NCBI GenBank assembly: GCA_024280875.1
Contig: JAJRPH010000087.1
Location: 1-28,119, forward strand
Direction: 5' to 3'
Length of the DNA stretch: 28,119 bases
DNA from: Deltaproteobacteria bacterium
GTDB taxonomy: Bacteria > Desulfobacterota > Desulfobacteria > Desulfobacterales > Desulfosalsimonadaceae
Part shown: piece after piece, positions 4,176 to 23,137 of the stretch
Position numbering within the stretch: position 1 is the first letter of the stretch
Layout: every line of letters begins with the position of its first letter
The notes under the pieces: model-generated
Databases searched by the model: none
The model's input: the letters and a program-made list of their open reading frames with translations, nothing else
Told to the model about the DNA's origin: nothing
Program-made: the position numbers and the translations under genes

Positions 4176-5423
4176 ATGCCAAATAAAGGCGATGATACGA
4201 CTGATAATCTTTTCTGCTCATTTTGTGGCAAAAATCAGCAGGAAGTCAAAAAACTAATCGCCGGCCCTGCAGTTTACATATGCGATGAATGTATCCAGCT
4301 TTGCAGTGAAATTATTGAAGAAGAAAGCAGCAAAGATACTGATCTTGCCGGACAGACCCTGACACCGGCGGAAATCAAAGAGAAACTGGATGAATATGTC
4401 ATTCAACAGGACCATGCCAAAAAAGTTCTCTCCGTTGCTGTTCATAATCATTACAAACGGTTGGAAACAAGCGTTAATACAGACGAGGTGGAGATACAGA
4501 AAAGTAATATCCTTTTAATCGGCCCCACCGGATGCGGTAAAACCTTACTGGCCCAGACTTTGGCACGGTTTTTAAATGTACCGTTCACCATAGCCGATGC
4601 GACAAGCCTGACAGAGGCCGGTTATGTTGGTGAAGATGTTGAAAATATTGTTCTGGCTCTTCTTCAAAATGCTGATTATGACGTGGAAAAAGCCCAGCGC
4701 GGAATTGTGTACATTGATGAAATAGACAAAATCTCACAAATGTCAGACAATCCATCAATTACCCGGGATGTTTCCGGTGAAGGGGTTCAGCAGGCGCTGT
4801 TGAAAATTATTGAGGGGACAACCGCCAGCGTACCCCCCAAAGGCGGCCGAAAGCACCCCCAGCAGGATTTTGTTAAAGTTGACACATCCAACATCCTCTT
4901 CATTTGTGGGGGCACATTTACCGGCCTGGATCAGATTATCCGGCGGCGCATCGGATCAAAACTGATGGGCTTTGGCGCAAAAGTTGTCAGCAAGACAGAA
5001 AGCAGCAACAGTGAAATTTTGCAGATGATTGAAACCGAAGACCTGATTAAATTCGGCCTGATTCCTGAATTTATGGGTCGTTTGCCGGTTGTGGCAACCC
5101 TCCAGGAACTGGATGAAGACGCGCTGATTAAAATCCTGACTTTGCCTAAAAATGCAATTATCAAACAGTTTCAAAAGCTTTTTGAAATTGAAGACGTCAA
5201 CCTCAGGTTTACAGACAGCGCACTTTCAGCGATCGCCAGCGAAAGTTTAAAAAGAAAAGCCGGCGCACGTGGACTTCGGGCAATTCTTGAAACGTCAATG
5301 CTTGATATTATGTATGAATTGCCGTCCATCGGCGGAGTCAAAGAATGTGTTGTCGGTGAAGAAGTTATCCTCAACAAGGAAGAGCCTATTTTATTGTACG
5401 AAAATTCCAAAAAGCAGGCGTAA
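4176..5423 (+). CDS. clpX: Clp protease ATP-binding subunit ClpX
   Basis: CSFC...CDEC zinc finger, GPTGCGKT Walker A, '[14 protein letters not shown]', 'GGRKHP'. Confidence 0.99.
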
Positions 5424-5487
5424 GCTCTTAACCCGGAAAATCGGATAAACCGGAAAAGTTAAAAATTAATTTAAAATTTGAACCCGT

Positions 5488-5533
5488 CACCTCAATAACC
5501 GATTGAATATTGGTTATTGAGGTGTTTTTTTTT
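5488..5533 (+). terminator. Intrinsic terminator after clpX
   Basis: 13-bp perfect stem CACCTCAATAACC / GGTTATTGAGGTG followed by a T run. Confidence 0.85.
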
Positions 5534-5719
5534 GATTTAATCCAGCATATAATACGCGCACTCTGAGCACCGACTATATCCAAAAAAAACCTCTTTTTTT
5601 GAAATTACACTTGCCACCGTTAGCTTTAGTGCTTAGTTTATCTTCAACTATTTGTCTTTATCTCAGACAAAAAATTCTTATAATTTTGAAAACCAGTAAA
5701 AAGAGATTAATTAAATCCT

Positions 5720-8179
5720 ATGATACATATACCAAAAATTTTCAGACCCGATGATTCGTCAGAAGATGGAAATCAATCCCCCATAACACTTCCCCTGCTG
5801 CCTTTGCGCGATATTGTTGTGTTCCCTCACATGGTATCCCCGCTTTTCGTGGGAAGATCAAAATCAATCAATGCCATTTCCGAGGCTATGAACTCCGAAG
5901 AAAAATATATTCTTCTCTCCACGCAATCTGATGCGGGAAAAGAAATTCCCAAGGAAAATGAAATCAATAAAATCGGAACGATTGCAAAAGTTCTTCAGAT
6001 GCTCCGGCTTCCCGACGGGACAGTGAAGACCGTTGTCGAAGGTAAATATCGCGCACGTATTGTCGATTTTAAACCAAACGAAAGCTTTTTTGAAGTTAAC
6101 CTTGAAATAATTGAAGAACCGGAAATTAATCAAAGTGAAAAAGAAGCTTTTTCCCGAAATATCAATATGCTGTTGAAGGACTATGCGGAACTGAATAAAA
6201 ACTTTTCAAAAGACACGCTCAAGAACCTTTCCATTATTACGGATCCGGTTAAAATGGTATACACCGTTGCCGGTCACTTTTCTTTTAAAACGGCAGCAAA
6301 CCAGTCTTTGCTGGAAACCGCCGCCATTAGTGAACGCCTCACCCACTTAATTGAATTGATTAAACAGGAAATCATTATTCTGGAGACCGACAAGCTGATC
6401 AAAAGCCGTATTAAAGAACAAATGGAGAAAAGCCAAAAAAACTATTACCTCAATGAACAGATGCGGGCCATTAAAAAAGAAATGGGATCTGATGACTCAG
6501 AAGCCGACGAATTAAAAGATCTTGAACAACGCATCAATCAGAAAAAAATGTCCAAAGAGGCAAATACAAAAACCAAACATGAATTGAAAAAGCTGAAAAT
6601 GATGACACCCATGTCGGCGGAAGCAACTGTTGTAAGAAATTATATCGACTGGCTGATCAGCCTGCCATGGAGAAAAAAAAGCAAAGTCGCTAAAGATATC
6701 GAAAAGGCGCAAAAAATCCTGGATGAAGACCACTACGGACTTAAAAAACCCAAGGAACGAATCCTTGAATACCTTGCCGTTCAAACTCTGGTGAAGAAAT
6801 TGCGAGGACCGATACTCTGCCTGGTGGGTCCTCCGGGGGTCGGTAAGACGTCTCTTGCAAAATCCGTTGCAAGGGCCACTGGTCGAAAATTCGTCAGGCT
6901 ATCTTTGGGCGGGGTCCGGGATGAAGCTGAAATTCGGGGGCATCGCCGGACCTATATTGGCGCCATGCCCGGTAAAATTATCCAGTCTTTAAAAAAAGTC
7001 CATGTCAACAACCCGGTTTTTTGCCTGGATGAAATCGATAAAATGAGCATGGATTTTAGGGGCGATCCGTCTGCCGCACTTTTAGAGGTGCTAGACCCGG
7101 AACAAAACTACGGTTTTAACGACCATTATCTTGATGTGGAGTATGATCTGTCGGATATTATGTTTATCACCACGGCCAACACACTGCCGGATATACCGCT
7201 GCCGCTTCAGGACCGGATGGAAATCATCCGTCTTTCCGGGTACACGGAAGTTGAGAAATACCATATTGCCGAAAAATTTCTGGTACCTAAACAGATTAAA
7301 CAAAACGGGTTAAAAAAGAATAAAGTCATATTTTCCAAAAATTCGATTTACGCTATTATCCGGGGCTACACCCGTGAAGCCGGAGTACGGAACCTGGAAC
7401 GGGAAATTGCCTCCATCTGTCGAAAAATTGCAAAAGACCTGCTCAAAAACAAAAAACATATCAATAGCAAGGTCACCTCAATTTCGTCAAAAACAGTTGA
7501 AAAATATCTGGGACCCGGACGAACCAACTTCGGCCTGGTGGAAAAAGAAAACCAAGTCGGTATTGTCACGGGCCTTGCCTGGACACAGTTCGGTGGTGAA
7601 CTCCTGAGCGTGGAAACGGTGACTATGCCCGGCAAAGGAAACTTCACCGTGTCCGGAAAGCTGGGGGACGTGATGAAAGAGTCTGCCAAAGCCGCTATCA
7701 GCTACGTTCGATCACGATCCGAACAGTTCAATATCGATCAGCTGTTTCATGAAAAAACAGACATCCATATTCATGTGCCCGAAGGGGCAATTCCTAAAGA
7801 CGGCCCGTCTGCCGGGATTGCCATGTGCACAGCCATTATCTCGGCACTTACCAAGCTTCCGATAGACAGGGATGTGGCGATGACAGGAGAGATAACCCTC
7901 CGCGGCCGGGTTCTTCCCATCGGCGGATTAAAAGAAAAAATTCTGGCTGCCCACAGGGGCGGTATTAAAAAAGTATTAATCCCCAAGGATAATGAGCGGG
8001 ATATCAGCGATATTCCTGCCAGTGTGGTCAAACAGCTGACCATCATTGCTGTGGAACATATGGATGAAGTCATCAAGCATTCAATCATTGAGAGCGATGA
8101 CAAACCGCTGTACAATCATTCTTATAATTTTGACAAGGGCAAGCTGGATGACTCAGATATCGTGGCCGCCGATGCGTAA
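5720..8179 (+). CDS. lon: Lon protease (endopeptidase La)
   Basis: '[13 protein letters not shown]', GPPGVGKTS Walker A, 'PKDGPSAG' (Ser), 'GGLKEK' (Lys). Confidence 0.99.
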
Positions 8180-8393: not shown

Positions 8394-8469
8394 GGGCGGG
8401 TAGCTCAGTTGGGAGAGCATCGGCCTTACAAGCCGAGGGTCACAGGTTCAAGCCCTGTTCCGCCTACCA
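8394..8469 (+). tRNA. tRNA-Val(TAC)
   Basis: Anticodon arm TCGGC-CTTACAA-GCCGA, T arm ACAGG-TTCAAGC-CCTGT, ends ACCA. 76 nt. Confidence 0.98.
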
Positions 8470-8479
8470 CCCTTTTTAT

Positions 8480-8560
<81 letters not shown>

Positions 8561-8659: not shown

Positions 8660-8785
8660 CACTCTTTTTTTACTCTCAGACTTTCAGATAAAGCGCCTCC
8701 ATTTCCAAATTTACTCTTTTCCCATATATAGTATGTTTCGAAAGAACCCACACTACATAAAGATTCACGCTCAAATCAACAGAGT

Positions 8786-8851
8786 TTTGTGGATCACTTT
8801 TTAGCAACAAAAAGCTTTGTGGATCACTTTTCGCAAAAAATGATCCACAAA
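8786..8851. repeat. Triple 16-bp repeat: two direct, one inverted
   Basis: TTTGTGGATCACTTTT at 8786-8801 and 8816-8831 (30-bp period). Inverted copy AAAAATGATCCACAAA at 8836-8851 with 1 mismatch. Confidence 0.9.
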
Positions 8852-8876
8852 TTCGCTTATAACGAATATATTAACC

Positions 8877-9998
8877 TCAAAAAACGGGGAGCCCTTCAGC
8901 GATGTTGAGCAGCTCAGGGAAAATATAAATAGCTGACCGTCTCCCACTGGCTTTGCGGAGTGTTTTTATGATGCCACTATCCCTCAATACCCTTATAATC
9001 CTTTTTGTTGTAGGTGCAGGGATTGCATCACAGGAATTAAAGTCTGTTGCTTTAAAAACCGGACGAGAAAAAATGAAATCAAGGGCATGGATACCATATT
9101 GAGAGTGGGTTAGCTCAATAATAAAGCTCTTTTTCTTTTCATAAAGTTCCAATATGGCTTCAGTTTTTTCCAAATTTTCCTTTGCCTGTTCAGCAACAGC
9201 ATGCAGAAAAAACTTACACCACTGCGTCCAGTCATTATCCTTGGAAATTAATAGTAATCGCCGATAGTATTCATCACGATTTGCCTCAAAATACGCACTG
9301 ATGTAAAACAATGGGCGCTGGATAAGACCTTGTTCAGTCAAATAAAGCGGCACAAGCATTCTCCCTAAACGGCCATTTCCATCAAGAAAAGGATGCAACG
9401 CTTCAAACTCAGCATGGAGAACACCAAGCTGAATCAACTTATCTGGCTCATTAGAATGAATATATTTCTCCCAATTACCCATAGCTTCCGGCAATTTTTC
9501 TGAAGATATAGGAATGAAGCGGGCTTCATCAATTGAGCAGCCTGGAGGGCCAATCCAATTTGAGTTTTTGCGGTATTCCCCCGGAGCCTTCCCGTGTCCC
9601 CTAACACCATCAAGAAGAATTCCATGGGCTTGCTTAATAACACGCTGACATAAAGGAAGGTTTGCTAATGCCCGTTCAGCCTCCCACATTGCTTTTCTAT
9701 AATTGAGAATTTCATTAATATCGCCTTTTTTCTCCTCTGAAATACCCTCTGCATCTTCTTCAGCTTCATATTCAAAAACCTCCCCCATAGTAGCCTGTGT
9801 ACCCTCAATTCTTGAAGAAAGAACAGCCTCTTGGGTTGTTAATGGGGTTAGCAAAATATTTGAATTAGGGATCGCTGACAATTTCCCATCATACCTCGCC
9901 AGAGCATCATGGGCAGGGCCGATTAATGGCAAGAGCTCCCTGTAATCAATATTGTTTGGCGGGAACCGGTCATAATGATAGTGAGTAGGCACACTCAT
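8877..9998 (-). CDS. Fic-family AMP-transferase, class II (internal inhibitory helix), with C-terminal HTH-like domain
   Basis: Complete HPFLDGNGRLGR motif. N-terminal SSRIEG matches (S/T)xxxE(G/N). Basic helical C-terminus. Confidence 0.93.
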   Translation of the reverse strand: MSVPTHYHYDRFPPNNIDYRELLPLIGPAHDALARYDGKLSAIPNSNILLTPLTTQEAVLSSRIEGTQATMGEVFEYEAEEDAEGISEEKKGDINEILNYRKAMWEAERALANLPLCQRVIKQAHGILLDGVRGHGKAPGEYRKNSNWIGPPGCSIDEARFIPISSEKLPEAMGNWEKYIHSNEPDKLIQLGVLHAEFEALHPFLDGNGRLGRMLVPLYLTEQGLIQRPLFYISAYFEANRDEYYRRLLLISKDNDWTQWCKFFLHAVAEQAKENLEKTEAILELYEKKKSFIIELTHSQYGIHALDFIFSRPVFKATDFNSCDAIPAPTTKRIIRVLRDSGIIKTLRKASGRRSAIYIFPELLNIAEGLPVF

Positions 9999-10335
9999 TT
10001 TTTCAACCTCTGTCTAATGACATTGTTCAACTAAGAATAATAAATCTAACCCCTTTGGATTTTAATAAATATATTCTAAACTAACATAAATTCAATGTTT
10101 TTTTCCCGACTTGCCCAGAGATTGAAAAGACAAACCTATTATAGATATTCCCCAACCCCCAACAAAAAACCGAACAATCGCCACCTCGACAACCCGATTA
10201 TTTTTATTATAGTGCCTGTTTTTATTTATAAAAACAATTGTTTTCCAATGAGAATTACTCTAACTATATAAAATGCATATTTTAAGTCTCCGAAAAATCG
10301 ACTAAAATAAAAAGGGTATTTAAGCAAAAAACAAT

Positions 10336-13245
10336 ATGCAACTGACGCCTTATCATGCCAAATATTTTGCCTACGAACTGACCAAACGGAGTTCATCAAA
10401 CAGTATCCAAAAACTGGCGGCATCCCTGTTGGATGCCCAGGTGGATTTAAATCCCCATCAGGTGGAAGCCGCCTTGTTTGCCTTCAAATCGCCTCTTTCA
10501 AAAGGAGCGATCCTTGCCGATGAAGTGGGGCTTGGCAAAACCATTGAAGCCGGGATTGTGATTTCCCAGAAATGGGCTGAACGAAAAAAGAAAATTCTTA
10601 TTATCGTACCTTCAAGCTTGCGGAAACAATGGGATCAGGAGTTGCTTGATAAATTTTTTCTTCCGTCGCTTATTCTTGAGACCCCCGCCTTTAATCAGGA
10701 AATCAAAAAAGGGAACCTCAACCCCTTTGTTCAGGAACAAATCATCATCTGCTCCTATCATTTTGCACGATCCAAGGAACCTTATATCACACAAATAAAC
10801 TGGGATTTGGTGGTGATTGACGAAGCCCATCGACTGCGCAATGTGTATAAGCCCGCCAACAAAATTGCGAACGCCATCAAAAGAGCCGTTTCTCATGCCC
10901 CAAAAATTTTGCTTACGGCAACCCCTTTACAGAACTCACTTCTTGAGCTGTATGGCCTTGTCAGTATTATTGATGATTATACATTCGGGGATTTACAAAG
11001 TTATAAAAATCAGTTTTCCCGACTGACAGGAGAAGACAGCTTTGATGATTTAAAAAATCGTCTGAAACCTGTTTGCAAAAGAACCCTTCGCCGGCAGGTG
11101 CTGGAATATATAAAATTCACCAACCGACTGACCATAACACAGGAGTTTATTCCTTCTCCGGAAGAACAGCAGCTTTATGATCTGGTGTCATCCTATTTAC
11201 AGCGCAATAACCTCTATGCCCTTCCTGCCGGCCAGCGCCAACTCATGACCCTTATTTTGCGCAGGCTGCTTGCCTCATCGACATTCGCCATTGCGGGCAC
11301 CCTTGAAGCTCTGGCAACAAAACTTGAAAATATCGAGGGCCTTTTCAACCGGCAAACGGAAATGGAAACCCTCATTTCAGATGATTTTGAAACATATGAT
11401 GAACTCTGCGATGAATGGCCGGCCGAAGAGTCCGACGAAGAATCCGACGCAAAAACCGACCCGGCCCTTTTCCGGAAGCAGGAGAAGACCTACACCCCGG
11501 AAGACATCGAATATATTAAACAAGAAATCCGCGATTTAACTGAATTCAAGCAGCTTGCCAGGTCCATCACCAGAAATTCAAAAGGGGAAGTCCTTCAGAC
11601 CGCATTAAAAAAAGGCTTTTCAGAAATAGAACGTCTCGGGGGCCGACAAAAAGCGATTATTTTCACGGAATCCCGCCGCACGCAGACATACCTCTTCAAT
11701 ATTTTGGAACAAACGGAATTTAAAGGCAGGATCATATTATTTAACGGCACCAACACGGACCCGCTTTCCCGGAAGATTTACCAAAAATGGCTTAAAAAAA
11801 ATAAAGGCACGGATAAAATTTCCGGCTCCAAAACAGCCGATATGCGGGCCGCCATTGTGGACTGTTTCAGGAATGAAGCGGTCATCATGATCGCCACTGA
11901 AGCCGCCGCCGAGGGGATCAACCTTCAATTCTGTTCCATTGTGGTGAATTATGATCTGCCCTGGAATCCCCAGCGCATAGAGCAAAGAATCGGAAGATGT
12001 CACCGGTACGGGCAGCAGCACGATGTGGTGGTGATCAATTTCCTCAACAAAAATAACGCGGCCGACCAGCGGGTCTATGAACTCCTGTCGGAAAAATTCA
12101 GACTTTTTTCCGGTGTTTTCGGAACCAGCGACGAGGTTCTGGGAAGCATTGAATCCGGTGTTGATTTTGAAAAACGGATTGCCAGGATTTATCAGAATTG
12201 CAGAACTATAGATGAAATCCAAACCGCTTTTGATGCCCTCCAAAAAGAACTGGAGGACCAGATTGAAAACCGCCTCACGTCCACCCGGCAGAAACTGCTG
12301 GAAACCTTTGACGAAGAAGTCCATGAAAAACTGCGTGTGAATTTGCTGGAAAGCAGGGCGTATATTTCAAAATACGAAAACTGGCTCTGGCAGATCACCC
12401 GGTATTATCTGGAGCCCCACGCCCGATTCGATGACAGCGGCCATTGTTTCACCCTGATTCAAAACCCGTTTCCCAATGAAAAAATACATGCCGGGCCTTA
12501 CAGAATCGGCAGAGCTGTTGACGACGCAAATATTTACAGACTCGGCCATCCGCTGGCCCGGAAAATAATCGCGCAATGCAAGGCGGCGGACCTGTATTTT
12601 CATGAACTGATTTTCAATTACACGGATACCCACATAAAAATCTCCATCATAGAGCCGCTGATCGGCAAATCCGGCTGGCTTGAAGTGTCTTGCCTGACAA
12701 TTCATTCTTTTGAAACCGAAGATCATGTTCTATTGTGCGGTATTTCCGATGACGGTTTGAAATTAGAATCTGAACAGTGTCGGAGACTCTTTTCGCTTCC
12801 GGCAACCGTTACCACTGGCAGTTTATTCAATGCCTCCCCATCGGTCACCGGTCAATTGCAGCCGATTGCCGATAAAATGCAAACAAAAATCTTACAGCAC
12901 AATGCCGAGCGGGACTCGGAGTTTTTTGATATTGAAATGGACAAACTTGAAAAATGGGCCGATGACGTAAAATGCAGTCTTGAAATCGAGCTGAAAGCAA
13001 TAGATAAGGAAATAAAATTCCGGAAAACCGAGGCAAAAAAAATCCTGAATCTGGAAGACAAGGTAAAGGCCCAGCGGCAGATCAAAGACATGGAAAAAAA
13101 ACGAAACACCCTGCGCATGAACCTTTTTCAGGCCCAGGATGATGTGGATGTCCGGAAAGAAAAACTGATCGATGATATTGAGGCCCGGCTTTCCCAGGGG
13201 ATTGAAAAAACCGGGTTGTTCCTGATACGGTGGCAGATTGTATAG
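10336..13245 (+). CDS. SNF2/RapA-like SF2 helicase-ATPase with C-terminal coiled coil
   Basis: LNPHQ, ADEVGLGKT, VIDEAH, LTATP, TEAAAEGINLQ, NYDLPWNP and EQRIGRCHRYGQ motifs. Heptad-rich C-terminus. Confidence 0.93.
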   Translation: MQLTPYHAKYFAYELTKRSSSNSIQKLAASLLDAQVDLNPHQVEAALFAFKSPLSKGAILADEVGLGKTIEAGIVISQKWAERKKKILIIVPSSLRKQWDQELLDKFFLPSLILETPAFNQEIKKGNLNPFVQEQIIICSYHFARSKEPYITQINWDLVVIDEAHRLRNVYKPANKIANAIKRAVSHAPKILLTATPLQNSLLELYGLVSIIDDYTFGDLQSYKNQFSRLTGEDSFDDLKNRLKPVCKRTLRRQVLEYIKFTNRLTITQEFIPSPEEQQLYDLVSSYLQRNNLYALPAGQRQLMTLILRRLLASSTFAIAGTLEALATKLENIEGLFNRQTEMETLISDDFETYDELCDEWPAEESDEESDAKTDPALFRKQEKTYTPEDIEYIKQEIRDLTEFKQLARSITRNSKGEVLQTALKKGFSEIERLGGRQKAIIFTESRRTQTYLFNILEQTEFKGRIILFNGTNTDPLSRKIYQKWLKKNKGTDKISGSKTADMRAAIVDCFRNEAVIMIATEAAAEGINLQFCSIVVNYDLPWNPQRIEQRIGRCHRYGQQHDVVVINFLNKNNAADQRVYELLSEKFRLFSGVFGTSDEVLGSIESGVDFEKRIARIYQNCRTIDEIQTAFDALQKELEDQIENRLTSTRQKLLETFDEEVHEKLRVNLLESRAYISKYENWLWQITRYYLEPHARFDDSGHCFTLIQNPFPNEKIHAGPYRIGRAVDDANIYRLGHPLARKIIAQCKAADLYFHELIFNYTDTHIKISIIEPLIGKSGWLEVSCLTIHSFETEDHVLLCGISDDGLKLESEQCRRLFSLPATVTTGSLFNASPSVTGQLQPIADKMQTKILQHNAERDSEFFDIEMDKLEKWADDVKCSLEIELKAIDKEIKFRKTEAKKILNLEDKVKAQRQIKDMEKKRNTLRMNLFQAQDDVDVRKEKLIDDIEARLSQGIEKTGLFLIRWQIV

Positions 13246-13400
13246 AAAAACAGGACATTTTTTACTTCACTCGAAAACGGAAAAATGTGTAAAACCTTTT
13301 AAAATCAAAATATTGTTACTTCATTTACAAGGACCCGAGTTCGACGTCCTCAAAATTCGCCGAGTACATTCCTTACTGGGCATAAAGATAAAGAGGAATT

Positions 13401-15113
13401 ATGACCAAACAAAAACTGGAACTGACCTGGATCGGCAAGGAAAAACAGCCGGTGCTGGAACCCCGCATTCTTATTGAAGACCCGGAAAAATCATACGGTG
13501 ACAAGACCGCTGAAAACATGCTGATATTCGGTGATAACCTGCTGGCGTTGAAAGCGCTGGAACAGGATTTTGCGGGAAAAATCAAATGCGTGTTTATTGA
13601 TCCACCGTATAATACAGGATCTGCCTTTGCCCAATATGATGATGGAATTGAACATTCGTTATGGCTGAGCTTAATACGAAATCGCTTAGAGATATTACAT
13701 AGGCTTTTAAAATCAGATGGTAGCATATGGGTGACATTAGATGACAATGAAGCTCATTATTTTAAGGTGATGTGCGATGAAATCTTTGGAAGGCATAATT
13801 TTATTGCAGATATAGCTTGGAAAAAGCGCGACAGCCCTCCAAATGACAGAAAAATTGGATCTATTAACGATCACATTTTAATCTGGTCAAAAGGCTTTAA
13901 GGTGGGCAGTAAAAAGACATTAGCAGAAGAATCATTCAACCTCATGCAGAGAACAGAAAAAGCCGATTCACAATATCAAATATGGAAGGAGCCGGATGGG
14001 CCAGACCCACGAGGACCTTTTCGTAAAATCGATACGACAGCTCATGGGAAAGGTGGCCGTTTTGTTAAAAGTTTATTTTATCCAGTAAAAAATCCTTATA
14101 CAGGCGAAGAAGTATGGCCAAGGGAAGGATGCTGTTGGAGGCATAATAAAAATGATATGGAGCGATTACAGTCAGAAAAACGAATATATTGGGGAGTTAA
14201 AGGGACCGCTAAAACTCCAATGAGAAAGTATTTTAAATTTGAAGCCAAACAGGGTATGTGTGCTCCTACTATTTGGGATAATGTTGGCCTTAACCAACAT
14301 GCTTCTCGTGAGCTTGAAATTCTATTTGAGAAGAAAGCGTTTTTCGAAACACCGAAACCAGAATTCTTGCTTAAAAGAATTTTTGAAATGGCAACCAACC
14401 CAGGAGACTGGGTTCTTGACTCATTTTTAGGCTCTGGAACCACCGCAGCAGTAGCCCATAAAATGAACCGCCGCTGGATCGGCATTGAACTCGGAGACCA
14501 CTGCCACACCCACTGCCTGCCGCGCCTGAAAAAGGTTGCCGACGGCACGGACCAGGGCGGAATTTCCAAGGCGGTCAACTGGAAAGGCGGGGGCGGGTTT
14601 AAATATTATTACCTGGCCCCCAGTTTGCTGAAAGCGGATAAACACGGCAACTGGATCATCGACGAGCGCTATAACGCGGATATGCTGGCTGCGGCCATGG
14701 CAAAGCATGAGGGGTTCAGGTACGCACCTGATCCGGATATTTACTGGAAACAGGGCCAATCAACAGAAAAGGACCATCTCTTTACCACCACCCGGTTTGT
14801 CACCATTGAATTGCTGGACAAGATCCATGAAGAAATGCAACCGGATGAGAGTCTGCTCATCTGCTGCAAGTCTTTTTCCAAATCCTGCGAAACACGGCAT
14901 GCCAATATCACCGTCAAGAAAATCCCCAACATGCTATTGGGTAAATGTGAATTCGGCCGGGAAGATTACAGTTTCAATATCATCAATATGCCGGTTGATG
15001 ACAATGCCCCTGACTTTGTGCCGCCCGGCCCAACGGAAAAAAACCCAAAAAAGACCAAAACCTCAACATCCAACAAGCAAATGGAATTATTCAAACAAGA
15101 GGATAAGCAATGA
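13401..15113 (+). CDS. mod: Type III restriction-modification methyltransferase (beta-class, N6-adenine type)
   Basis: 'GDNLLAL', DPPY (motif IV), central TRD, 'TPKPE', 'VLDSFLGSGTT' (motif I). Overlaps the res start (ATGA). Confidence 0.93.
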   Translation: MTKQKLELTWIGKEKQPVLEPRILIEDPEKSYGDKTAENMLIFGDNLLALKALEQDFAGKIKCVFIDPPYNTGSAFAQYDDGIEHSLWLSLIRNRLEILHRLLKSDGSIWVTLDDNEAHYFKVMCDEIFGRHNFIADIAWKKRDSPPNDRKIGSINDHILIWSKGFKVGSKKTLAEESFNLMQRTEKADSQYQIWKEPDGPDPRGPFRKIDTTAHGKGGRFVKSLFYPVKNPYTGEEVWPREGCCWRHNKNDMERLQSEKRIYWGVKGTAKTPMRKYFKFEAKQGMCAPTIWDNVGLNQHASRELEILFEKKAFFETPKPEFLLKRIFEMATNPGDWVLDSFLGSGTTAAVAHKMNRRWIGIELGDHCHTHCLPRLKKVADGTDQGGISKAVNWKGGGGFKYYYLAPSLLKADKHGNWIIDERYNADMLAAAMAKHEGFRYAPDPDIYWKQGQSTEKDHLFTTTRFVTIELLDKIHEEMQPDESLLICCKSFSKSCETRHANITVKKIPNMLLGKCEFGREDYSFNIINMPVDDNAPDFVPPGPTEKNPKKTKTSTSNKQMELFKQEDKQ

Positions 15114-17782
15114 ACAAAATCGCAACCTCCATCAAAAACCGTTTGAGTCTGCGCCCTCCGCAAGCCGAAAGTTTGAATATCCTGACGGAACTTGCCGACA
15201 AGCTGGCGCTGACTAAAAATGTTGATCTGCCGTCCGAGCTTGAAAAAGTCAAAACCAAATACCCCACATGTACGGATTTTGAGCGGGATTTCCCGTCGCT
15301 GTGTTTTGCCCTTGCCACGGGGGTGGGCAAAACCCGGCTCATGGGCGCGTTTATCACCTACCTTTTTTTGGCAAAAGGATTTAGAAATTTCTTTGTACTT
15401 TCGCCGAATCTGACAATTTACGAAAAGCTGATCACAGACCTTTCGGAGCCGAATAACCCCAAATATGTATTTAACGGGATCGGTGAATTTGTGCATCAGC
15501 GTCCCCGGATTATTACCGGTGATAATTACAAGGATTTTCGTCAATCACTGATGTTTGACAAATCTGAAATCAATATCAGCCTGTTTAATATTTCAAAAAT
15601 CAATGCTGAAACCCGAGGCAACGCGATTCCCCGGATTAAGCGAATGTCCGAAGTATTGGGCGAACCGTATTTCAATTATCTGGCAGGTCTGGAGGATCTG
15701 GTCTTATTGATGGATGAATCCCACCACTATCGGGCGGCCCGGGGCTTGCAGGTCATTAATGACCTTAAACCGGTCCTGGGCATAGAACTGACCGCCACTC
15801 CGCAAGTTGAACAGCGCGGCAACGCCATCAAGTTTAAAAATGTCGTGTATGAATATTCACTGGCAAAAGCCATAACAGACGGGTTTGTCAAAGAACCGGC
15901 CGTCGCCACCCGCAAAGATTTCGATCCGACACATCATTCAGCCGAAGAAGTTGACAGAATCAAACTGGAAGACGGCATCCGCCTGCATGAAGATACCAAG
16001 GTGGCCCTTGATATTTATTCACGAGACGCCAGAGTCCACGCCGTTAAACCGTTTGTGCTGGTGGTTGCAAAAGACACCCGGCATGCCGCCCAAATAAAAG
16101 ACCTGATTGTTTCAACGTCATTTTTTGAAGGATATTATGCGGACAAGGTCATGGAAATTCATTCCAATCAAAGGGGCGGAGAAAAAGAGGAAAACATCGC
16201 ACTGCTTATTTCTCTGGAGAATCCGGACAACGTCATTGAGATCGTCATTCATGTAAATATGCTCAAAGAAGGATGGGACGTCACCAATCTGTATACCATT
16301 GTTCCGCTTCGCACCGCTGCTTCTCAAACCCTTCGGGAACAGACCATCGGCCGGGGACTCCGGCTGCCATATGGGAAACGGACCGGAAGCGACAAAGTAG
16401 ACAAATTGACCATTGTGGCTCATGACCGGTTCCAGGAAATTGTGGATGAAGCCAACCGGCCGGATTCCATTATCCGCAAGGAAAATATCATTGAAATTGA
16501 TCCTGAGGAATTGGCGCAGCAAAAAGAAGTCGTCACCGCTGTTTCAACGATTGACCAGAAAATCCTGGATGAACAGGTAAGGATTGAAACTATTGTCGAA
16601 CCCGAAAAAAAACAAAACGCCCAAATCAGCCTGGATTTGCAGAAAACCATTCTTTCCACCCTTCCTGAATTAAATACATCAGTCAAAAACATCCAGGACC
16701 TGACACGATCGGAAATTAAAGTCATTGCCGTTGAAAAGATCAAACAGAAAATCTTCAGTTCTCCCCAGAAAGTCCTGTTTGCCCAGCAGATGATTAAAGA
16801 AGTTGAAGACGCCTATGACGCAATGGTTCATGATTTTGTGGCAAACATTATTGAAATTCCGAGGATTACCATTCAGCAAAGTGAAGATATCCGGTCCGGT
16901 TTTCATGATTTTGATCTGGATGTTAAAAATTTGAATTATCAACCGGTATCCGAAGAAATTCTGGTGAAAAAACTGCGGGAACAGGAAAACAGCATCGACA
17001 TTGTGATCGGCAAAGGGCGGATCACCCCGGATCGCCTGGATAATCTCATTGTGAACGAACTGATTAATTTTCCGGAAATTGATTATGATGTTTGCGCGGA
17101 TCTGCTTTTTCAATTAGCCGGGCAGTCAATTGATAAATTTAAAATCTATCTTGATGATGAACGGATGACGAATGTCGTTCAGTATCATAAAAGAGAAATC
17201 GGGCAATATATTTACGCTCAGATGATGGCGCATTTTTATTGCGAGACCCCGACATTTCAGGCGCCCGTCGTTAAACCGTTTACCCGAATCGAGGAACACA
17301 ACTTTTCAAAGTATTCCAAAGACAGCATCCACCATTATACCGAAACCATCGTGCCGACCAACGCCATTCCGAGCAAGGTGTTTTCCGGTTTTAAACGGGC
17401 CTGCCATACCTTATATAAATTTGATTCAAAAACAGAAAAAGATTTTGCCGTTATTCTGGAACAGGATAACGCGGTGCTCAAGTGGCTGCGCCCGGCCGGA
17501 AACCAGTTCCATATTTACTGGAAACACAACACCAAACAATATCATCCGGATTTTGTGGCGGAAACCGCCGGCACCATCTACCTGATTGAAACCAAAAAGG
17601 AGAAAGATATTGATACGGCCGAAGTCCGGGAAAAAGCGCAGGCCGCCCTTACCTATTGCCGACACGCCACCGAATTCACCACACAGAACAACGGCAAGCC
17701 ATGGAAATACGTATTAATCCCCCATAATGCGGTTCTAACTAATATGGGCTTTGATACGTTGGTAAAGAATTTTGAATTTTAA
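15110..17782 (+). CDS. res: Type III restriction endonuclease/helicase subunit
   Basis: ATGVGKT, DESH, ELTATP, EGWDV, QTIGRGLR helicase motifs. C-terminal 'YHPDFVAE...LIETK' PD-(D/E)xK nuclease motif is intact. Confidence 0.93.
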   Translation: MNKIATSIKNRLSLRPPQAESLNILTELADKLALTKNVDLPSELEKVKTKYPTCTDFERDFPSLCFALATGVGKTRLMGAFITYLFLAKGFRNFFVLSPNLTIYEKLITDLSEPNNPKYVFNGIGEFVHQRPRIITGDNYKDFRQSLMFDKSEINISLFNISKINAETRGNAIPRIKRMSEVLGEPYFNYLAGLEDLVLLMDESHHYRAARGLQVINDLKPVLGIELTATPQVEQRGNAIKFKNVVYEYSLAKAITDGFVKEPAVATRKDFDPTHHSAEEVDRIKLEDGIRLHEDTKVALDIYSRDARVHAVKPFVLVVAKDTRHAAQIKDLIVSTSFFEGYYADKVMEIHSNQRGGEKEENIALLISLENPDNVIEIVIHVNMLKEGWDVTNLYTIVPLRTAASQTLREQTIGRGLRLPYGKRTGSDKVDKLTIVAHDRFQEIVDEANRPDSIIRKENIIEIDPEELAQQKEVVTAVSTIDQKILDEQVRIETIVEPEKKQNAQISLDLQKTILSTLPELNTSVKNIQDLTRSEIKVIAVEKIKQKIFSSPQKVLFAQQMIKEVEDAYDAMVHDFVANIIEIPRITIQQSEDIRSGFHDFDLDVKNLNYQPVSEEILVKKLREQENSIDIVIGKGRITPDRLDNLIVNELINFPEIDYDVCADLLFQLAGQSIDKFKIYLDDERMTNVVQYHKREIGQYIYAQMMAHFYCETPTFQAPVVKPFTRIEEHNFSKYSKDSIHHYTETIVPTNAIPSKVFSGFKRACHTLYKFDSKTEKDFAVILEQDNAVLKWLRPAGNQFHIYWKHNTKQYHPDFVAETAGTIYLIETKKEKDIDTAEVREKAQAALTYCRHATEFTTQNNGKPWKYVLIPHNAVLTNMGFDTLVKNFEF

Positions 17783-17879: not shown

Positions 17880-17996
17880 CATTTTATGAAAATCAAGGCA
17901 ATTTCATATAAACCAGAATAAACACTAAAACAGAATATACTTTATAATTAATAGGTTTAGGATATACAGATAAAAGCAAGTAAATATATCCCCCCA

Positions 17997-18046
17997 GCCT
18001 GTCACGCCGGAGGTCGCGAGTTCGAGTCTCGTCGCTCCCGCCATAA
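17997..18046 (+). repeat. Right att direct repeat (displaced 3' half of tRNA-Asp)
   Basis: GCCTGTCACGCCGGAGGTCGCGAGTTCGAGTCTCGTCGCTCCCGCCATAA. Single difference is G18026 vs T8540. The D arm and 5' acceptor strand are missing, so it is not a tRNA. Confidence 0.97.
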
Positions 18047-18052: not shown

Positions 18053-18087
18053 AAGGGGACTGGAATTTTTTCCAGTCCCCTTTTTTT
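18053..18087. terminator. Strong hairpin terminator, likely the original tRNA-Asp terminator; may also end the FHA gene transcript
   Basis: 13-bp stem AAGGGGACTGGAA / TTCCAGTCCCCTT, T run downstream, A-rich upstream. Confidence 0.85.
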
Positions 18088-18185
18088 ATTGAAGACATAC
18101 AACCCGGAGCAACTATTTCATTTAATTCTTTGAAATACCAAACACCTCAAAAACCGCAAACAAACATAAAATTTCTTTTACATCG

Positions 18186-18740
18186 TTATTTGAAGATAAA
18201 AAAACCAACGACAATCAATGCAAAGATCACTCCGCCCCATAAAAGTAACTGGCTGATTGACAACCCGGGGTCTTGTGTGTTTACGGTAGGCCCGTGAGCT
18301 TTCTGATTTGACACATTCGGCTGATCATTTTCGATTCTGGCGCGCAATTGGGCCAGTTGTGTGGAACTCAGAACCGTTGTGCCATCAAAATCATCCAGTG
18401 AAACGCTGTTTTTTTTATGCTCTGATGTGTCTGGCAATTCGATTGTCACCCGCAGAGAAAACTTGCCAAGACTGATGACATCATCGTTCTTCAAAGCAGC
18501 TTCATTAATCTGCCGGTTATTCAGAAAGGTGCCATTGGTACTGCCCATATCCTTAACGATATAGGGGCCGCCGATGGATCTCTCAATCCGTGTGTGTTGA
18601 CGTGAAATCCCATTGTTATCGATAAAAATATCCGCCGTGGGGATACGGCCGATTTCCACGACATCCTGTTTAAAAGCAAAGGTTTTTAGGATGTTATCCT
18701 TTATAGCCAGCTCAATTTTCAATACCTGATCATTACGCAT
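18186..18740 (-). CDS. FHA-domain protein with C-terminal transmembrane anchor
   Basis: 'IGR', 'ISRQH', 'DMGSTNGTFLN' FHA signature. C-terminal 'LLLWGGVIFALIVVGFFIFK' helix. GGAG RBS. Confidence 0.9.
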   Translation of the reverse strand: MRNDQVLKIELAIKDNILKTFAFKQDVVEIGRIPTADIFIDNNGISRQHTRIERSIGGPYIVKDMGSTNGTFLNNRQINEAALKNDDVISLGKFSLRVTIELPDTSEHKKNSVSLDDFDGTTVLSSTQLAQLRARIENDQPNVSNQKAHGPTVNTQDPGLSISQLLLWGGVIFALIVVGFFIFK

Positions 18741-18815
18741 TGGTTGCTCTCCAGGGTTGGTTAGGCAATATGCTTCTTGAATTAGAAAAGGAATAAGTTT
18801 TTTATTTTGCTATAT

Positions 18816-18845
18816 ATTATAGGGTATAAAAAAAAAATATGTCAA
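18816..18845 (-). promoter_or_regulatory. Perfect-consensus sigma70 promoter of the FHA gene with a T10 tract in the spacer
   Basis: Minus strand TTGACA (18845-18840)-N18-TATAAT (18821-18816). The spacer contains a 10-nt homopolymer (18828-18837). Confidence 0.75.
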
Positions 18846-18997
18846 GTTTTATCCTGTGTTCGCCCCTTTATCCGTCATGAATCACTGCTTATAAATATGA
18901 TTGATGTTTCACCCATGATGCGATAAGATAACAGATTCATGATGATAAAAATTCTGTTGGATAAAATCAAAAATCGGATCAGCCTCAGGTACGGAAT

Positions 18998-19837
18998 ATG
19001 AATCATTTAAAATATGGTTTCAGCACAAATGTGGGTAATGTCCGCTCTCATAACGAAGACTATTTTCGTACCGAGCCTGAATTGGGACTTTGGGTTGTTG
19101 CAGACGGTATGGGAGGGCATAAAGGCGGTGAAACTGCATCCGCCATTGCCGCCGACTTTATTGTTGATAAAACCAAAGCGGGAAAACCTTTAGAGACATC
19201 GATTGCACAGGCGCATCACGCCATTAAACAGGCAAGCAAGGAAGGTAAAGGACCTGAAGGGATGGGAACAACCGTTGTGGCCCTTAAAATAAATGATAAC
19301 GACTATGAGATTGCGTGGGTGGGTGACTGTAGGGCATATCTATGGGACGGCATTACGCTGAAACAGATGACAAAAGACCATTCTTACGTCCAGCACCTTG
19401 TAGATACCGGTGTAATATCCGTCAGCGAAGCAGCCAACCATCCATATCAGGATGTTCTTATTCAGGCACTGGGGGCCGCTGATATCAAAGATGTGAATGT
19501 GGAAACAATTCACAATGAATTTCATCAGAATGAACAGATCCTGTTGTGCAGTGATGGACTTACCAAGGAGATAACTGATAAGGGCATTGCCGATGCACTG
19601 GCCCTTGAATTAAAAGAGCAGGAAAAAGTGGATCTGCTGATCCGGACTGCCGTAAATAATGGCGGAAAGGATAATATCACCGCCATACTGGTTTCCGCAG
19701 ATGATGATGCCCCTGTCAGAATGCTGATTGGCGACACAGTACCCATTAATACACAAGAATCAATGCCAACCGGTTTAGCTGAGAAACTGATTTCCTGGCT
19801 GAAACGGACATTTAAGGTATTTTTATCAACCAAATAA
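18998..19837 (+). CDS. PP2C/PPM-family Ser/Thr phosphatase (Stp1/PrpC-like)
   Basis: 'RSHNED', 'VADGMGGH', 'MGTT', 'WVGDCRAY', 'TKDHS', 'LCSDGL', 'GGKDNIT'. Confidence 0.96.
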   Translation: MNHLKYGFSTNVGNVRSHNEDYFRTEPELGLWVVADGMGGHKGGETASAIAADFIVDKTKAGKPLETSIAQAHHAIKQASKEGKGPEGMGTTVVALKINDNDYEIAWVGDCRAYLWDGITLKQMTKDHSYVQHLVDTGVISVSEAANHPYQDVLIQALGAADIKDVNVETIHNEFHQNEQILLCSDGLTKEITDKGIADALALELKEQEKVDLLIRTAVNNGGKDNITAILVSADDDAPVRMLIGDTVPINTQESMPTGLAEKLISWLKRTFKVFLSTK

Positions 19838-19858
19838 AAATGATCCGATACAAATTTT

Positions 19859-22800
19859 ATGATTGAGATTCCCAATTACGAAATCGGAAAACTGGCCGGC
19901 CGCGGCGGTGTTGCTGAAGTATATCTTGCAAGACACAAATTACTGGATCGAACGGTTGCCATAAAAGTCATTTTCCCCACCCAGGCGGACGACCAGGCGG
20001 ACAAACGATTTTTAAAAGAAGCAAAAGTGGTTGCCGGGCTCCGTCACCCGAATATTGTATCCATTTATGATGTCGGTGTTTATGAAAATAAATATTACAT
20101 CATCATGGAATATCTGGAAGGAGGCGACCTCAAACAAAACGTTCAGCGGACCCTCGCAATTCCTCAAACGCTTAAAATCATACGCCAAATCACCTCTGCG
20201 CTGGGCCATGCCCATGATAAAGGCTTTGTTCATCGCGATATCAAATCCCAAAATATCATGTTTCGCGCCGACGGCACGGCTGTTCTCACAGATTTCGGTA
20301 TTGTCAAAGACCTGACAGCAGATTCAGGCTACACGCTTGACGGAACCAGCATCGGCACTCCGCACTATATGAGTCCTGAGCAGGCTCAGGGAACGGAAGT
20401 TGACTGGCGGACGGATATCTATAGCCTGGGCGTCACTTTTTATGAAATGCTCACGGGGTCAGTCCCCTATAATGCAGATTCCGCTATTGCCGTCGCTCTT
20501 AAGCACATTAAAGATCCTGTGCCCCAGTTACCGGAACAATTTGCCAGCTTTCAACCGCTCATCGATAAATTAATGGCTAAAAATCCCGATGACCGATTCC
20601 AGTCTGCCCAAGACCTGCTTCGTGCCATCAGCGAACTTGATGGCGAAGGTCTTCCGAACGAGACCGTCGTGATGAAGCACAAATCTTTACAAAAGGTGAA
20701 CCTTTCCAATATTCTTTTCGGTGTGTTAGTTGGCTGTCTCATCGGCGGACTCATGTTCCTGAGCCAGCCGTACTTCTCCCGTTTCATTGACCGACAAAAC
20801 ATTACCGAGACGCAGACTGCAAAGGGTCCACACGTTAAATCGGCGACCCAGAATCCGAAAAGACCTTTTCTGGATGCAATCAAAAAGAATTGGACGACTT
20901 CTGTCGACTCGAAAGAGTTAACTGACTTAATCGTAAAAAAAGATTATTCAGAAGCGCTCACTTACATTTCACAAATCCGGAAAGAGATGCCGGCGACATC
21001 CAACGAAATGATACAAAAAGCGGATCGGTTTATTGAATCAAAGCAGAATATGAATGCCGGAGATATTTATAACACGGTTTTGTCTGTTGACCCGCAGAAC
21101 ACATCGGCACTTATGGGACTGCTTTATGTGGCCATCGAAAAACAGCAGGCAATGGCGACAAATCAGAGCCCATCGATTGCGGAATATGACGCCTTACTGG
21201 CATTATTAAACAAAGCGATCAATAACACCGATTCCCAATATTTCAAACAATTGAAAATCGAGTCCGTGGAGTCTGTTTATGAATTCGCCCGCCATCAATT
21301 GGAACAGCAGCGTTTTCAACAGGCCGGCATATGGGTGAAAACAGGATTAAAAAATGCACCGGATCATTTGCGGCTGAAAAAACTCGGTTATCTCATCCAG
21401 GCCCAAATCAGTATTAATGAAAACCGCCTGACTTTGCCGGATCAGGATAATGCGCTGGCCTATTACCGGAAGGTTCTACAGATAGATCCGGATGATCAGG
21501 CCGCCAGGCAGGGAATCTCCCGCATTAGCGACAAGTACAAAACCATGGCATTAGACGCCCAGAAAAAAAACAAATACAACGAGGCGGTCCAGCTGATCGC
21601 AAAAGCCCGATCGATTGTCCAAAACGACCCGGGTTTACAGATAACCGAGTGGCTTATCTTAGGGGATATGTATGCTTCAATGGGACAGTTCAATACGCCT
21701 GAAAATAAAAATGCCCGGCATTTTTATCAAAAAATTCTGGCACAATCTCCTCAAAACAAGCAGGGAATCTTGCGGATCGCCAAACTTAAAATGCTCATTC
21801 CTCTTTATCAGGTCCGACAGACAGATACGATTTCTGAAAAAATGCCTGCCTACAAAACACTCCTTTCAGAGTTGGATTCCGCCATTACCGAACATGGCCC
21901 GGAGAATATGGCAGATTTAACGCATCAGGTGACTGACCAGATAAAAGAAGACATGCAAGCCCAAAAGAAACGGAAGCAGACCATTCCGGCAGAATTCATG
22001 ACGCTGGTATCCAGTCATTTCCCTGACGAGAATGAAATTTTTAATACACAGTATGAAATATTGATTGCAAAAGGTGCTGAAAGTACTTCGAAAATGGAAA
22101 AAACGGAGTATTACTTAAAGGCACTGAAACTAAACCCGGTCCCTTTACCGGCAAAAGAAAAAATTGAAAAGATTGCAAACGATCTGGACAACCAGGGAAA
22201 AACAAATGACGCCCAGGCTGTATTGAAACAGGCCATGGATATCGCTCCGAAACATGCACCGTTTAATGAGATGTTTCAAACGAACCGGAAAATTCAGGAT
22301 ACAAAAGCGGAAATCTTCACCTTGCTGTTAAAAATCAAACGGATCCATACATTATCGGAAAAAGTTGAGCTTTATCACGCGGTATTTTCAAAGCTGAAAT
22401 CCTCTACCAAGCGGTTTGGCCAAAAAAAAATAAAGAATTTGAAAAATGATGTAACCGACCAGATTAAAACCGATATTAAAGCCAGAAAAAACAGCCGACA
22501 AACAATCCCGGTAAAATTCATGACGCTGGTTGAAAATGATTTTCCCGAAATGAATGCGTATGTGGTCAATGCCCAATATGAAATATTGATTGGAAATGGC
22601 GATAAAAGCGCCTCAAAAAAGGAAAAAGCGGAGTATTACCTGAACGCTTTGAAATTAGATAAAAAACGGGTGAAAGCAAAAAACAGCATTATTTTGCTTG
22701 CGAAAAATCTGGACAAAAATAAACACAATGAAGAGGCGGTGGCTGTTTTACAAAAGGCGACGGCTGTTTCACCAAATGATTTGATATTTCGTCAATTATC

Positions 22801-23137
22801 TGACAAAATCAAACATATGGTTGAAGTATTTGCCACAATTTCCGGATGTGCGAAAGAGAACAGGATTACTAAGGTACCGGTTTCCATTGAGAATCTGAAT
22901 CTTTGCATTCATTACCGGAATCTGGACCCTGACAGCGTAGTCAATATTGTCTTAACTCAAAAAAACGGCCAGGCCATGGAAATCCCCGTGGTCTTAGATG
23001 AGAGTTCCGGCAGTAAACCAATGGACATCGTCGCCCCGATCGAAGGATTCGCGCTGGGCGAATACTCGATTTCAATCAGACAAGACGAAAAAATATTATC
23101 AGAAGCACTGATACAATTTATACCCAAACGGAGGTAA
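19859..23137 (+). CDS. Membrane Hanks-type Ser/Thr kinase with a large TPR-like extracytoplasmic region
   Basis: GRGGVAEVY, VAIK, HRDIKSQN, DFG, GTPHYMSPE. TM helix near 20700-20775. Helical repeats after it. Confidence 0.95.
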   Translation: MIEIPNYEIGKLAGRGGVAEVYLARHKLLDRTVAIKVIFPTQADDQADKRFLKEAKVVAGLRHPNIVSIYDVGVYENKYYIIMEYLEGGDLKQNVQRTLAIPQTLKIIRQITSALGHAHDKGFVHRDIKSQNIMFRADGTAVLTDFGIVKDLTADSGYTLDGTSIGTPHYMSPEQAQGTEVDWRTDIYSLGVTFYEMLTGSVPYNADSAIAVALKHIKDPVPQLPEQFASFQPLIDKLMAKNPDDRFQSAQDLLRAISELDGEGLPNETVVMKHKSLQKVNLSNILFGVLVGCLIGGLMFLSQPYFSRFIDRQNITETQTAKGPHVKSATQNPKRPFLDAIKKNWTTSVDSKELTDLIVKKDYSEALTYISQIRKEMPATSNEMIQKADRFIESKQNMNAGDIYNTVLSVDPQNTSALMGLLYVAIEKQQAMATNQSPSIAEYDALLALLNKAINNTDSQYFKQLKIESVESVYEFARHQLEQQRFQQAGIWVKTGLKNAPDHLRLKKLGYLIQAQISINENRLTLPDQDNALAYYRKVLQIDPDDQAARQGISRISDKYKTMALDAQKKNKYNEAVQLIAKARSIVQNDPGLQITEWLILGDMYASMGQFNTPENKNARHFYQKILAQSPQNKQGILRIAKLKMLIPLYQVRQTDTISEKMPAYKTLLSELDSAITEHGPENMADLTHQVTDQIKEDMQAQKKRKQTIPAEFMTLVSSHFPDENEIFNTQYEILIAKGAESTSKMEKTEYYLKALKLNPVPLPAKEKIEKIANDLDNQGKTNDAQAVLKQAMDIAPKHAPFNEMFQTNRKIQDTKAEIFTLLLKIKRIHTLSEKVELYHAVFSKLKSSTKRFGQKKIKNLKNDVTDQIKTDIKARKNSRQTIPVKFMTLVENDFPEMNAYVVNAQYEILIGNGDKSASKKEKAEYYLNALKLDKKRVKAKNSIILLAKNLDKNKHNEEAVAVLQKATAVSPNDLIFRQLSDKIKHMVEVFATISGCAKENRITKVPVSIENLNLCIHYRNLDPDSVVNIVLTQKNGQAMEIPVVLDESSGSKPMDIVAPIEGFALGEYSISIRQDEKILSEALIQFIPKRR

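Follow-up and report, generated by a model that had tools for sequence, protein, structure and literature searches.

An SNF2-associated type III restriction-modification system on a tRNA-Asp island and the probable accessory role of its SNF2 motor

Introduction

In a 28,119-nucleotide stretch of DNA from a Deltaproteobacteria bacterium of the Desulfosalsimonadaceae (assembly GCA_024280875.1, contig JAJRPH010000087.1, positions 1 to 28,119 of the forward strand), referred to throughout as the window, three consecutive plus-strand genes encode an SNF2-family ATPase and the Mod and Res proteins of a type III restriction-modification system. The trio is the main content of an island inserted in a tRNA-Asp gene. 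Here we describe the three genes, their relatives in other genomes and the island that carries them. On balance, the SNF2 protein is probably an accessory, DNA-acting translocase on double-stranded DNA (dsDNA) and not a stable subunit of the restriction enzyme.

Results

Three intact genes encode an SNF2 ATPase and a type III Mod/Res pair

The first gene (10336..13245, plus strand) encodes the SNF2-family ATPase, a protein of 969 amino acids (aa) with an ATPase core at about aa 30-600 followed by a C-terminal module at about aa 640-969. The protein matches the Pfam families SNF2-rel_dom (2.8e-35) and Helicase_C (7e-21) and carries the motifs GLGKT65, DEAH162, TATP194 and RCHRYGQ554, while a motif scan found no nuclease motif in it. 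The second gene (13401..15113, plus strand) encodes Mod, a beta-class N6/N4 DNA methyltransferase of 570 aa that matches Pfam N6_N4_Mtase (PF01555, 6.4e-46) and the PADLOC MTase_III model PDLC03636 (614 bits across aa 1-538). Its DPPY67 (motif IV) lies N-terminal to FLGSG342 (motif I, FxGxG), which is the beta-class order, and Mod is thus predicted to be an N6/N4 methyltransferase of a class whose motifs cannot separate N4-methylcytosine (m4C) from N6-methyladenine (m6A). The third gene (15110..17782, plus strand) encodes Res, an 890-aa superfamily 2 (SF2) helicase-like ATPase with a C-terminal PD-(D/E)xK nuclease, which matches Pfam ResIII (2.2e-20) and the PADLOC REase_III model PDLC03648 (590 bits) and contains GVGKT at about 71-75, DESH202, TAT228, QTIGR411 and PD...ETK at 813-829. 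The mod gene lies directly 5' of res, with a 4-nt overlap between the mod stop and the res start. The motif order of Mod, the helicase and nuclease motifs of Res and the adjacency of the two genes are those of a type III system.

The SNF2 and mod genes are separated by a spacer of 155 nt (13246..13400, plus strand) that contains a ribosome-binding site (AAAGAGG) ahead of the mod ATG and in which no terminator-like hairpin was found. The best promoter-like site 5' of the SNF2 gene lies at 10186..10213 on the plus strand (TCGACA-16-TATAGT), a consensus match only. None of the three open reading frames (ORFs) is interrupted, and the intact ORFs, strong family matches, full motif sets and mod-res overlap together confirm what a reading of the sequence alone had described, namely three intact co-oriented genes encoding two SF2 motors, one methyltransferase and one PD-(D/E)xK nuclease.

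Classical type III enzymes (EcoP1I, EcoP15I; Mod2Res1) likewise have a beta-class Mod and an overlapping Res with SF2 motifs and a C-terminal PD-(D/E)xK nuclease, but consist of two genes only, to which the window adds the SNF2 gene. The match between the window Res and EcoP15I Res (4zcf_C) is weak (2e-06 over about 85 residues).

The SNF2 gene is linked to type III Mod/Res genes from both directions

Linkage was surveyed from either end of the trio. With the SNF2 protein as seed, 80 loci were collected from distinct species of many phyla (53-84% identity, nearly all full-length matches), and clustering of the neighbouring ORFs placed a type III Mod/Res pair downstream on the same strand in nearly every locus with enough DNA; all SNF2 homologues whose loci extend 10 kb downstream have a type III pair there. 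With Res as seed, 80 loci were collected at 45-84% identity, 52 of which are informative (at least 3 kb upstream of mod). An SNF2 gene is present in 47 of the 52 (about 90%), as a full-length gene in 43 and a partial one in 4 (two at a contig end), and is absent from the remaining 5. The three-gene layout of the window recurs in more than 70 other loci, and the order SNF2, Mod, Res and the orientation are constant in many phyla and with Mod/Res partners of at least three families. Sporadic linkage of the SNF2 gene to the window's Mod/Res clade would have spoken against the sequence-only reading; with the gene present in 47 of the 52 informative Res-seeded loci, this objection fails. The SNF2, Mod and Res genes form one conserved unit.

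The spacing within this unit is variable. In a survey of 76 loci with Mod/Res partners of the window's family (type A, see below), for which the SNF2 and Res seed sets somewhat overlap, the distance from SNF2 to mod is at most 300 bp in 16 loci and more than 1 kb in 50. The genes inserted in this gap are of defence type, encoding Bro-N/PDC-S13 and YhcG/DUF1016 nuclease proteins, an SMC-like ATPase, Schlafen/AlbA_2 proteins and HTH-IrrE proteins. The gap is a hotspot for cargo, of which the window represents the compact form. Unrelated defence-type genes also collect in the mod-res gap, less often than between SNF2 and mod.

Because such genes are often inserted between SNF2 and mod, close proximity of the two is not strictly required, and the insertions would suit an SNF2 protein that is a separate single-gene defence or serves a housekeeping function, sharing a defence hotspot with Mod and Res but not functionally coupled to them. 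We consider this highly improbable in view of the order and orientation kept over at least three Mod/Res families and many phyla, the frequency of the SNF2 gene among the Res-seeded loci, and the type III pair found behind every SNF2 homologue for which 10 kb downstream could be read. The tightness of the linkage, with the SNF2 gene always 5' of mod and on the same strand, also favours the main rival to an accessory role. Here SNF2 would be a true, perhaps transient, third subunit, its C-terminal module docking on a surface common to type III Mod or Res and its motor altering communication along DNA, for example through active translocation or loading that relaxes the need for two inverse sites.

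The window system belongs to a published type III subgroup

Type III systems with a conserved helicase-like ATPase encoded 5' of mod have been described in more than 500 genomes (Murray et al. 2021, PLoS One, PMC8259958). The characterised members are Eco86II from E. coli NCTC86 and BspHIV from Acinetobacter sp. H, and the protective modification is m4C in both (PMC8259958). Methylation by Eco86II is intact without the ATPase, and partially purified Eco86II gave partial site-specific cleavage of naked DNA in a preparation in which tandem mass spectrometry found Mod and Res and no ATPase peptides; the authors state the role of the ATPase as unknown (PMC8259958). No functional study of a type III-linked SNF2 protein came up in our literature search, which took in the papers that cite Murray et al. 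2021. An ATPase that is not needed for methylation and is undetected in a cleaving preparation weakens the idea of an obligatory third subunit, and 'three-component system' is used here as a hypothesis.

The only full-length homologue of the window SNF2 protein in NCTC86 (NZ_CP019778.1) aligns over window aa 3-969 at 47% identity (E 8e-265). It is annotated as an SNF2-related protein, and its gene lies 20 bp 5' of those for a 1040-aa site-specific methyltransferase and a 1126-aa DEAD/DEAH helicase protein, a pair equated with Eco86II by the description in the paper rather than by accession number and the only such methyltransferase/helicase pair in that genome. Two further E. coli SNF2 proteins, each encoded ahead of type III Mod/Res genes, match the window protein from end to end with 53% and 45% identity; in one of these loci, that of STEC309, a DUF262/DUF1524 gene separates the SNF2 and methylase genes. 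At the DNA level, homologues of the SNF2 locus turned up in 253 of 5426 complete E. coli genomes.

The Eco86II/BspHIV subgroup shares with the window the gene order and orientation, an SF2 ATPase that lacks a nuclease motif and full-length SNF2 homology, and the non-coding spacer 5' of mod is about 140 bp in BspHIV against 155 bp in the window. The Mod and Res proteins differ in family, being about 570 and 890 aa (PDLC03636/03648) in the window versus about 1040 and 1126 aa (PDLC03646/03654-type) in NCTC86. Judged by homology and layout, the window system belongs to this SNF2-associated subgroup, the third group of Murray et al. The novelty that the sequence-only reading had implied is accordingly withdrawn: the three-gene layout was published in 2021, and the Eco86II locus encodes a full-length homologue of the window SNF2 protein.

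The SNF2 core resembles DrmD but the locus is not DISARM

The SNF2 core scores best against models of DrmD (NCBIfam DISARM_DrmD_b, NF038318, 714.6 bits; PADLOC DrmD, 4.8e-214). NF038318 has an equivalog cut-off of 950, which the window protein does not reach, and its match covers aa 30-684 only; the score for NF038317 is 260 against a cut-off of 610. Like the window, class 1 DISARM has an SNF2 gene ahead of a methylase and a helicase-type effector. The DISARM methylase DrmMI is a pfam13659-type adenine methylase; the sole Pfam family on the window Mod is PF01555, and its best PADLOC models are MTase_III and not of DrmMI type. DrmA, DrmB and DrmC were not found in the island, where the only genes are those for a Fic protein, SNF2, Mod and Res. 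A genome-wide search, which did not extend to DrmA and DrmC, likewise found no DrmB (DUF1998, PF09369) in this assembly of 559 contigs with 84% completeness. The sub-threshold DrmD score, the PF01555 methylase and the lack of DrmA, DrmB and DrmC in the island led us to reject class 1 DISARM. The absence of drmA/B/C noted from the sequence alone is thus borne out for the island and, as far as DUF1998 is concerned, for this incomplete genome.

Other systems with related motors were also rejected. The HmaA model of Hma gives 174.9 bits against 711 for DrmD, and the island contains no third ATPase gene. ARMADA (ArmA with the ArmB methylase), BREX (BrxHI/BrxHII) and ietHAS (ietH) resemble the window in placing a RapA/DrmD-like SNF2 protein beside other defence genes. 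However, ARMADA has a PglX-like methylase and a YprA-type helicase-nuclease and ietAS a protease and an ATPase, none of which is encoded in the window island. ARMADA and BREX were excluded since no island gene matches a PglX-like methylase, a YprA-type helicase or BrxA/B/C/PglZ, and the BrxHI and BrxHII models reach only 209 and 168 bits on the window SNF2 protein. In these relatives the motor has been connected with defence: Walker A and DEAH mutants of ietH lose protection in ietHAS, deletion of drmD together with drmMI reduces defence by class 1 DISARM, and ArmA of ARMADA is predicted to be DrmD-like.

The SNF2 gene has repeatedly exchanged its Mod/Res partners

Three types of partner are found behind the SNF2 gene. 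Type A, the type of the window, comprises a Mod of about 550 aa and a Res of about 890 aa (PADLOC PDLC03648). Type B comprises a Mod of about 640 aa and a Res of 970 aa with an RE_endonuc domain (PDLC03647), and type C a Mod of 1100 aa (PDLC03646) and a Res of 1084 aa (PDLC03654), often followed by an McrB-like AAA_5 protein. Mapped onto a maximum-likelihood tree of 51 SNF2 sequences, the family of the Mod/Res partner changes at least 9 times, and 8 of these changes, for type A, are forced by well-supported branches. Closely related SNF2 proteins with unlike partners include a pair from the Brocadiaceae (one A, one B) and a clade from the Thermodesulfobacteriota where a pair of A loci has a pair of B loci as its sister group. 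Across partner types the SNF2 proteins are 45-70% identical, while their Mod and Res partners can barely be aligned with one another.

One locus, L008, retains a trace of such an exchange. Its type B res gene ends at 9007 and is followed at 9073-9279 by a 69-residue remnant of the C-terminus of a type A res gene, 67% identical to window Res aa 822-890, and the remnant is read as the scar left when one Mod/Res cassette took the place of another behind an SNF2 gene that stayed where it was. Among three unrelated type III Mod/Res families, the SNF2 gene has changed partners at least 9 times. Such repeated swaps between barely alignable partners, together with the conservation of SNF2 itself, are hard to reconcile with the co-evolving interface expected of a third subunit.

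Three alphaproteobacterial loci (L062, L066 and L075) were at first taken for class 1 DISARM, until PADLOC and Pfam identified a PDLC03646 methyltransferase, a PDLC03654 restriction enzyme and an McrB-like AAA_5 protein. In these loci two genes follow the trio at about 19.4-22.7 kb, one for a 734-aa McrB-like AAA_5 protein and one for a product of about 380 aa, and the pair may be a linked type IV (McrBC-like) module.

The SNF2 protein ends in a family-specific module

The C-terminal module of about 330 aa is well conserved, with a mean column identity of 52% over 46 sequences. A profile of the module finds 679 cluster representatives at E <= 1e-30, where it forms the end of complete proteins of about 940-1000 aa. 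In the AlphaFold2 model of SNF2 aa 640-969 (predicted local distance difference test score of 84.7), two helices lead into a beta-rich domain and a coiled-coil hairpin of about 120 residues, and a closing strand completes the fold. A Foldseek comparison of this model with the PDB returned nothing at E <= 0.001, and a wide search with VIA-align returned generic helical hairpins on the coiled coil only, leaving the beta domain unmatched. Matches among the AlphaFold DB clusters are mostly uncharacterised or unnamed proteins, with a few fragments of helicases or SNF2-family proteins, apparently of the same family. The module is family-specific, with no solved relative detectable in these searches.

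The DrmD_b match does not extend past about aa 684, which makes the tail a feature of the type III-linked SNF2 family alone, and both this specificity and the conservation of the module at the C-terminus of so many proteins speak for the docking surface that a third subunit would need. The failure to detect the ATPase by mass spectrometry in the cleaving Eco86II preparation, its dispensability for methylation and the exchange of partners described above speak against it, and we judge it unlikely that SNF2 is such a subunit. A complex prediction for Mod with SNF2 aa 640-969 (score 0.12, mark 0.34) was counted neither for nor against an interaction.

By sequence, the closest solved structure to the SNF2 protein is RapA (2e-39), in an alignment of window aa 18-223 with RapA aa 134-342. 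RapA (HepA) is the RNA polymerase-associated SNF2 ATPase of E. coli and acts on protein-DNA complexes. The region of RapA that lies N-terminal to its ATPase core has no counterpart in the window SNF2 protein, and the genomic contexts of the two are unlike.

The system is carried by an island in tRNA-Asp

The island measures 9,486 bp (about 9.5 kb), and its sole cargo is the Fic, SNF2, Mod and Res genes. On its left stands an intact tRNA-Asp (GTC) gene (8480..8557, plus strand; ARAGORN), whose 3' half (8508-8557) is attL and was supplied by the island. On its right a partial tRNA-Asp (17994..18043, plus strand), a 50-nt direct repeat of 8508-8557, is the displaced native 3' half and forms attR. 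It is followed by a strong terminator hairpin of 13 pairs (18053..18082, plus strand) that originally lay 3' of the native tRNA-Asp; a similar hairpin occupies the same position in a relative with an empty site.

The empty site was located by searching same-genus genomes with the lon-tRNA segment. In the contig concerned (empty site at L164:62-139) tRNA-Val, tRNA-Asp and the similar hairpin are followed by FHA, PP2C and kinase genes with no island between them, and it is taken as the empty site because the order from tRNA to FHA is contiguous and the contig is 84.6% identical to window 18181-20237. Four other same-genus genomes have neither lon nor tRNA-Asp upstream of the FHA gene and are uninformative on this point. 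Elements that integrate into tRNA genes supply their own tRNA 3' half. The 3' half brought by the island and the displaced native copy are alike except for a single base, a T in the former and a G in the latter: the intact tRNA-Asp of the window reads GTTCGATTCTCG, while the attR copy and the tRNA of the empty-site relative both read GTTCGAGTCTCG, which shows that the insert brought its own tRNA 3' half. The tRNA island proposed in the sequence-only reading is thus substantiated by the 50-nt attL/attR repeat and by the empty site in a genome of the same genus. No integrase was found within the 9.5-kb island. Another relative (G005, contig C28) holds two other partial copies of tRNA-Asp, from which we take this tRNA gene to be a reused integration hotspot.

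The mobility of the cassette bears on a further explanation, in which SNF2 protects the host by alleviating restriction, for instance by displacing Mod2Res from unmodified host sites during establishment, replication or repair, and so makes the cassette easier to transfer between hosts. Carriage on a tRNA island, occurrence in many phyla with a phylogeny that partly ignores taxonomy, and an ATPase dispensable for cleavage in vitro would all suit such a function, as would the removal of stalled complexes from DNA by motors of the same superfamily, RapA being the closest solved relative. Many type III systems nevertheless move without an SNF2 gene, and loss of drmD with drmMI or point mutation of ietH reduces defence with no sign of toxicity; host protection is on this evidence improbable.

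The remaining island gene (8877..9998, minus strand) encodes a Fic/DOC protein of 373 aa that is SoFic-like, with matches to Pfam Fic_N (2.3e-26) and Fic (1.8e-16) and to SoFic, a candidate-defence model of PADLOC (1.5e-114); against NCBIfam SoFic it scores 184.6 bits, under the equivalog cut-off of 550. The Fic gene may give the island a second defence or toxin function. The element TTTGTGGATCA(C/T)TTTT occurs three times at 8785-8852, just within the island's left end and downstream of the Fic gene, in two direct copies and one inverted. The repeat core TGTGGATCA is one base off the complement of a DnaA box, TGTGGATAA, and the TTTGTGGATCA repeats could be a site for a regulator or for island maintenance.

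To the left of the island lie tig, clpP, clpX and lon (2139-8179), followed 3' of lon by tRNA-Val and tRNA-Asp (8394-8557). To its right (18186-24908) a signalling cluster encodes an FHA protein (minus strand), a PP2C phosphatase, a 1092-aa Ser/Thr kinase with TPR repeats, an unassigned 276-aa protein and an adenylate/guanylate cyclase-FHA fusion, and citrate synthase and isocitrate dehydrogenase genes come after it. The first three genes of the cluster are conserved in same-genus genomes, indicating that these are host genes and not cargo. The kinase domain matches the PD-T4-6 models of PADLOC, as generic kinases do.

Discussion

The window contains an intact and well-conserved member of a published and abundant subgroup of type III systems, and the question is what a second motor contributes to it. 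If the enzyme works as its family suggests, Mod would methylate one strand of the asymmetric site that it recognises, and in Mod2Res1 ATP would trigger sliding, with cleavage of unmodified DNA where two complexes meet. We suggest that SNF2 acts in vivo as a dsDNA translocase on the substrate DNA, making no co-evolved contact with a particular Mod or Res, and that it may strip or push bound proteins much as RapA does with RNA polymerase. Stripping of this kind would let sliding type III complexes communicate on invading DNA that is covered with protein, or might otherwise license restriction, and the C-terminal module, with its beta domain and coiled-coil hairpin, could be the adaptor that ties SNF2 to type III systems.

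Four considerations lead us to regard an accessory translocase as the probable function. Firstly, the ATPase is unneeded for methylation and went undetected in a preparation that cleaves naked DNA. Secondly, SNF2 repeatedly exchanges unrelated Mod/Res partners while itself staying highly conserved. Thirdly, its nearest solved relative is RapA. Finally, related SNF2 motors matter in class 1 DISARM and ietHAS, and ArmA is a predicted DrmD-like protein. Proteins bound to DNA should interfere with complexes that communicate by one-dimensional sliding, and a motor would therefore be useful in the cell while its effect stayed invisible on naked DNA.

Several observations weigh against an accessory translocase. 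The near-exclusive linkage to type III genes is more easily explained by direct protein contact, and the C-terminal module, conserved and specific to the family, resembles an adaptor for binding other proteins. The missing ATPase in the Eco86II preparation could reflect low expression or loss during chromatography, and the similarity to RapA is limited to the ATPase N-lobe of the window SNF2 protein. A stronger proposal, that SNF2 is required in vivo and makes this a mechanistically different three-part system by clearing roadblocks or anti-restriction proteins or by relaxing the two-site inverse-orientation rule, we put forward as possible but doubtful. If SNF2 is required in vivo, it would be a portable booster for DNA-targeting defences, since it works with Mod/Res partners of three unrelated families and is similar to DrmD, ArmA and ietH.

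Type III enzymes figure in textbooks as an example of long-range communication on DNA through sliding triggered by ATP. That a large and widespread type III subgroup carries a second, highly conserved motor makes the role of this motor a question of moderate interest. The window instance reveals no new principle, its value lying in being a minimal, cargo-free example. What is new here are the swapping of partners, the family-specific C-terminal module and the cargo hotspot, all of which constrain the possible mechanisms. Solving the role of SNF2 would tell us if enzymes that slide passively depend on an active helper in the cell, and might account for the repeated occurrence of SNF2 motors next to methylases in DISARM, ARMADA and BREX.

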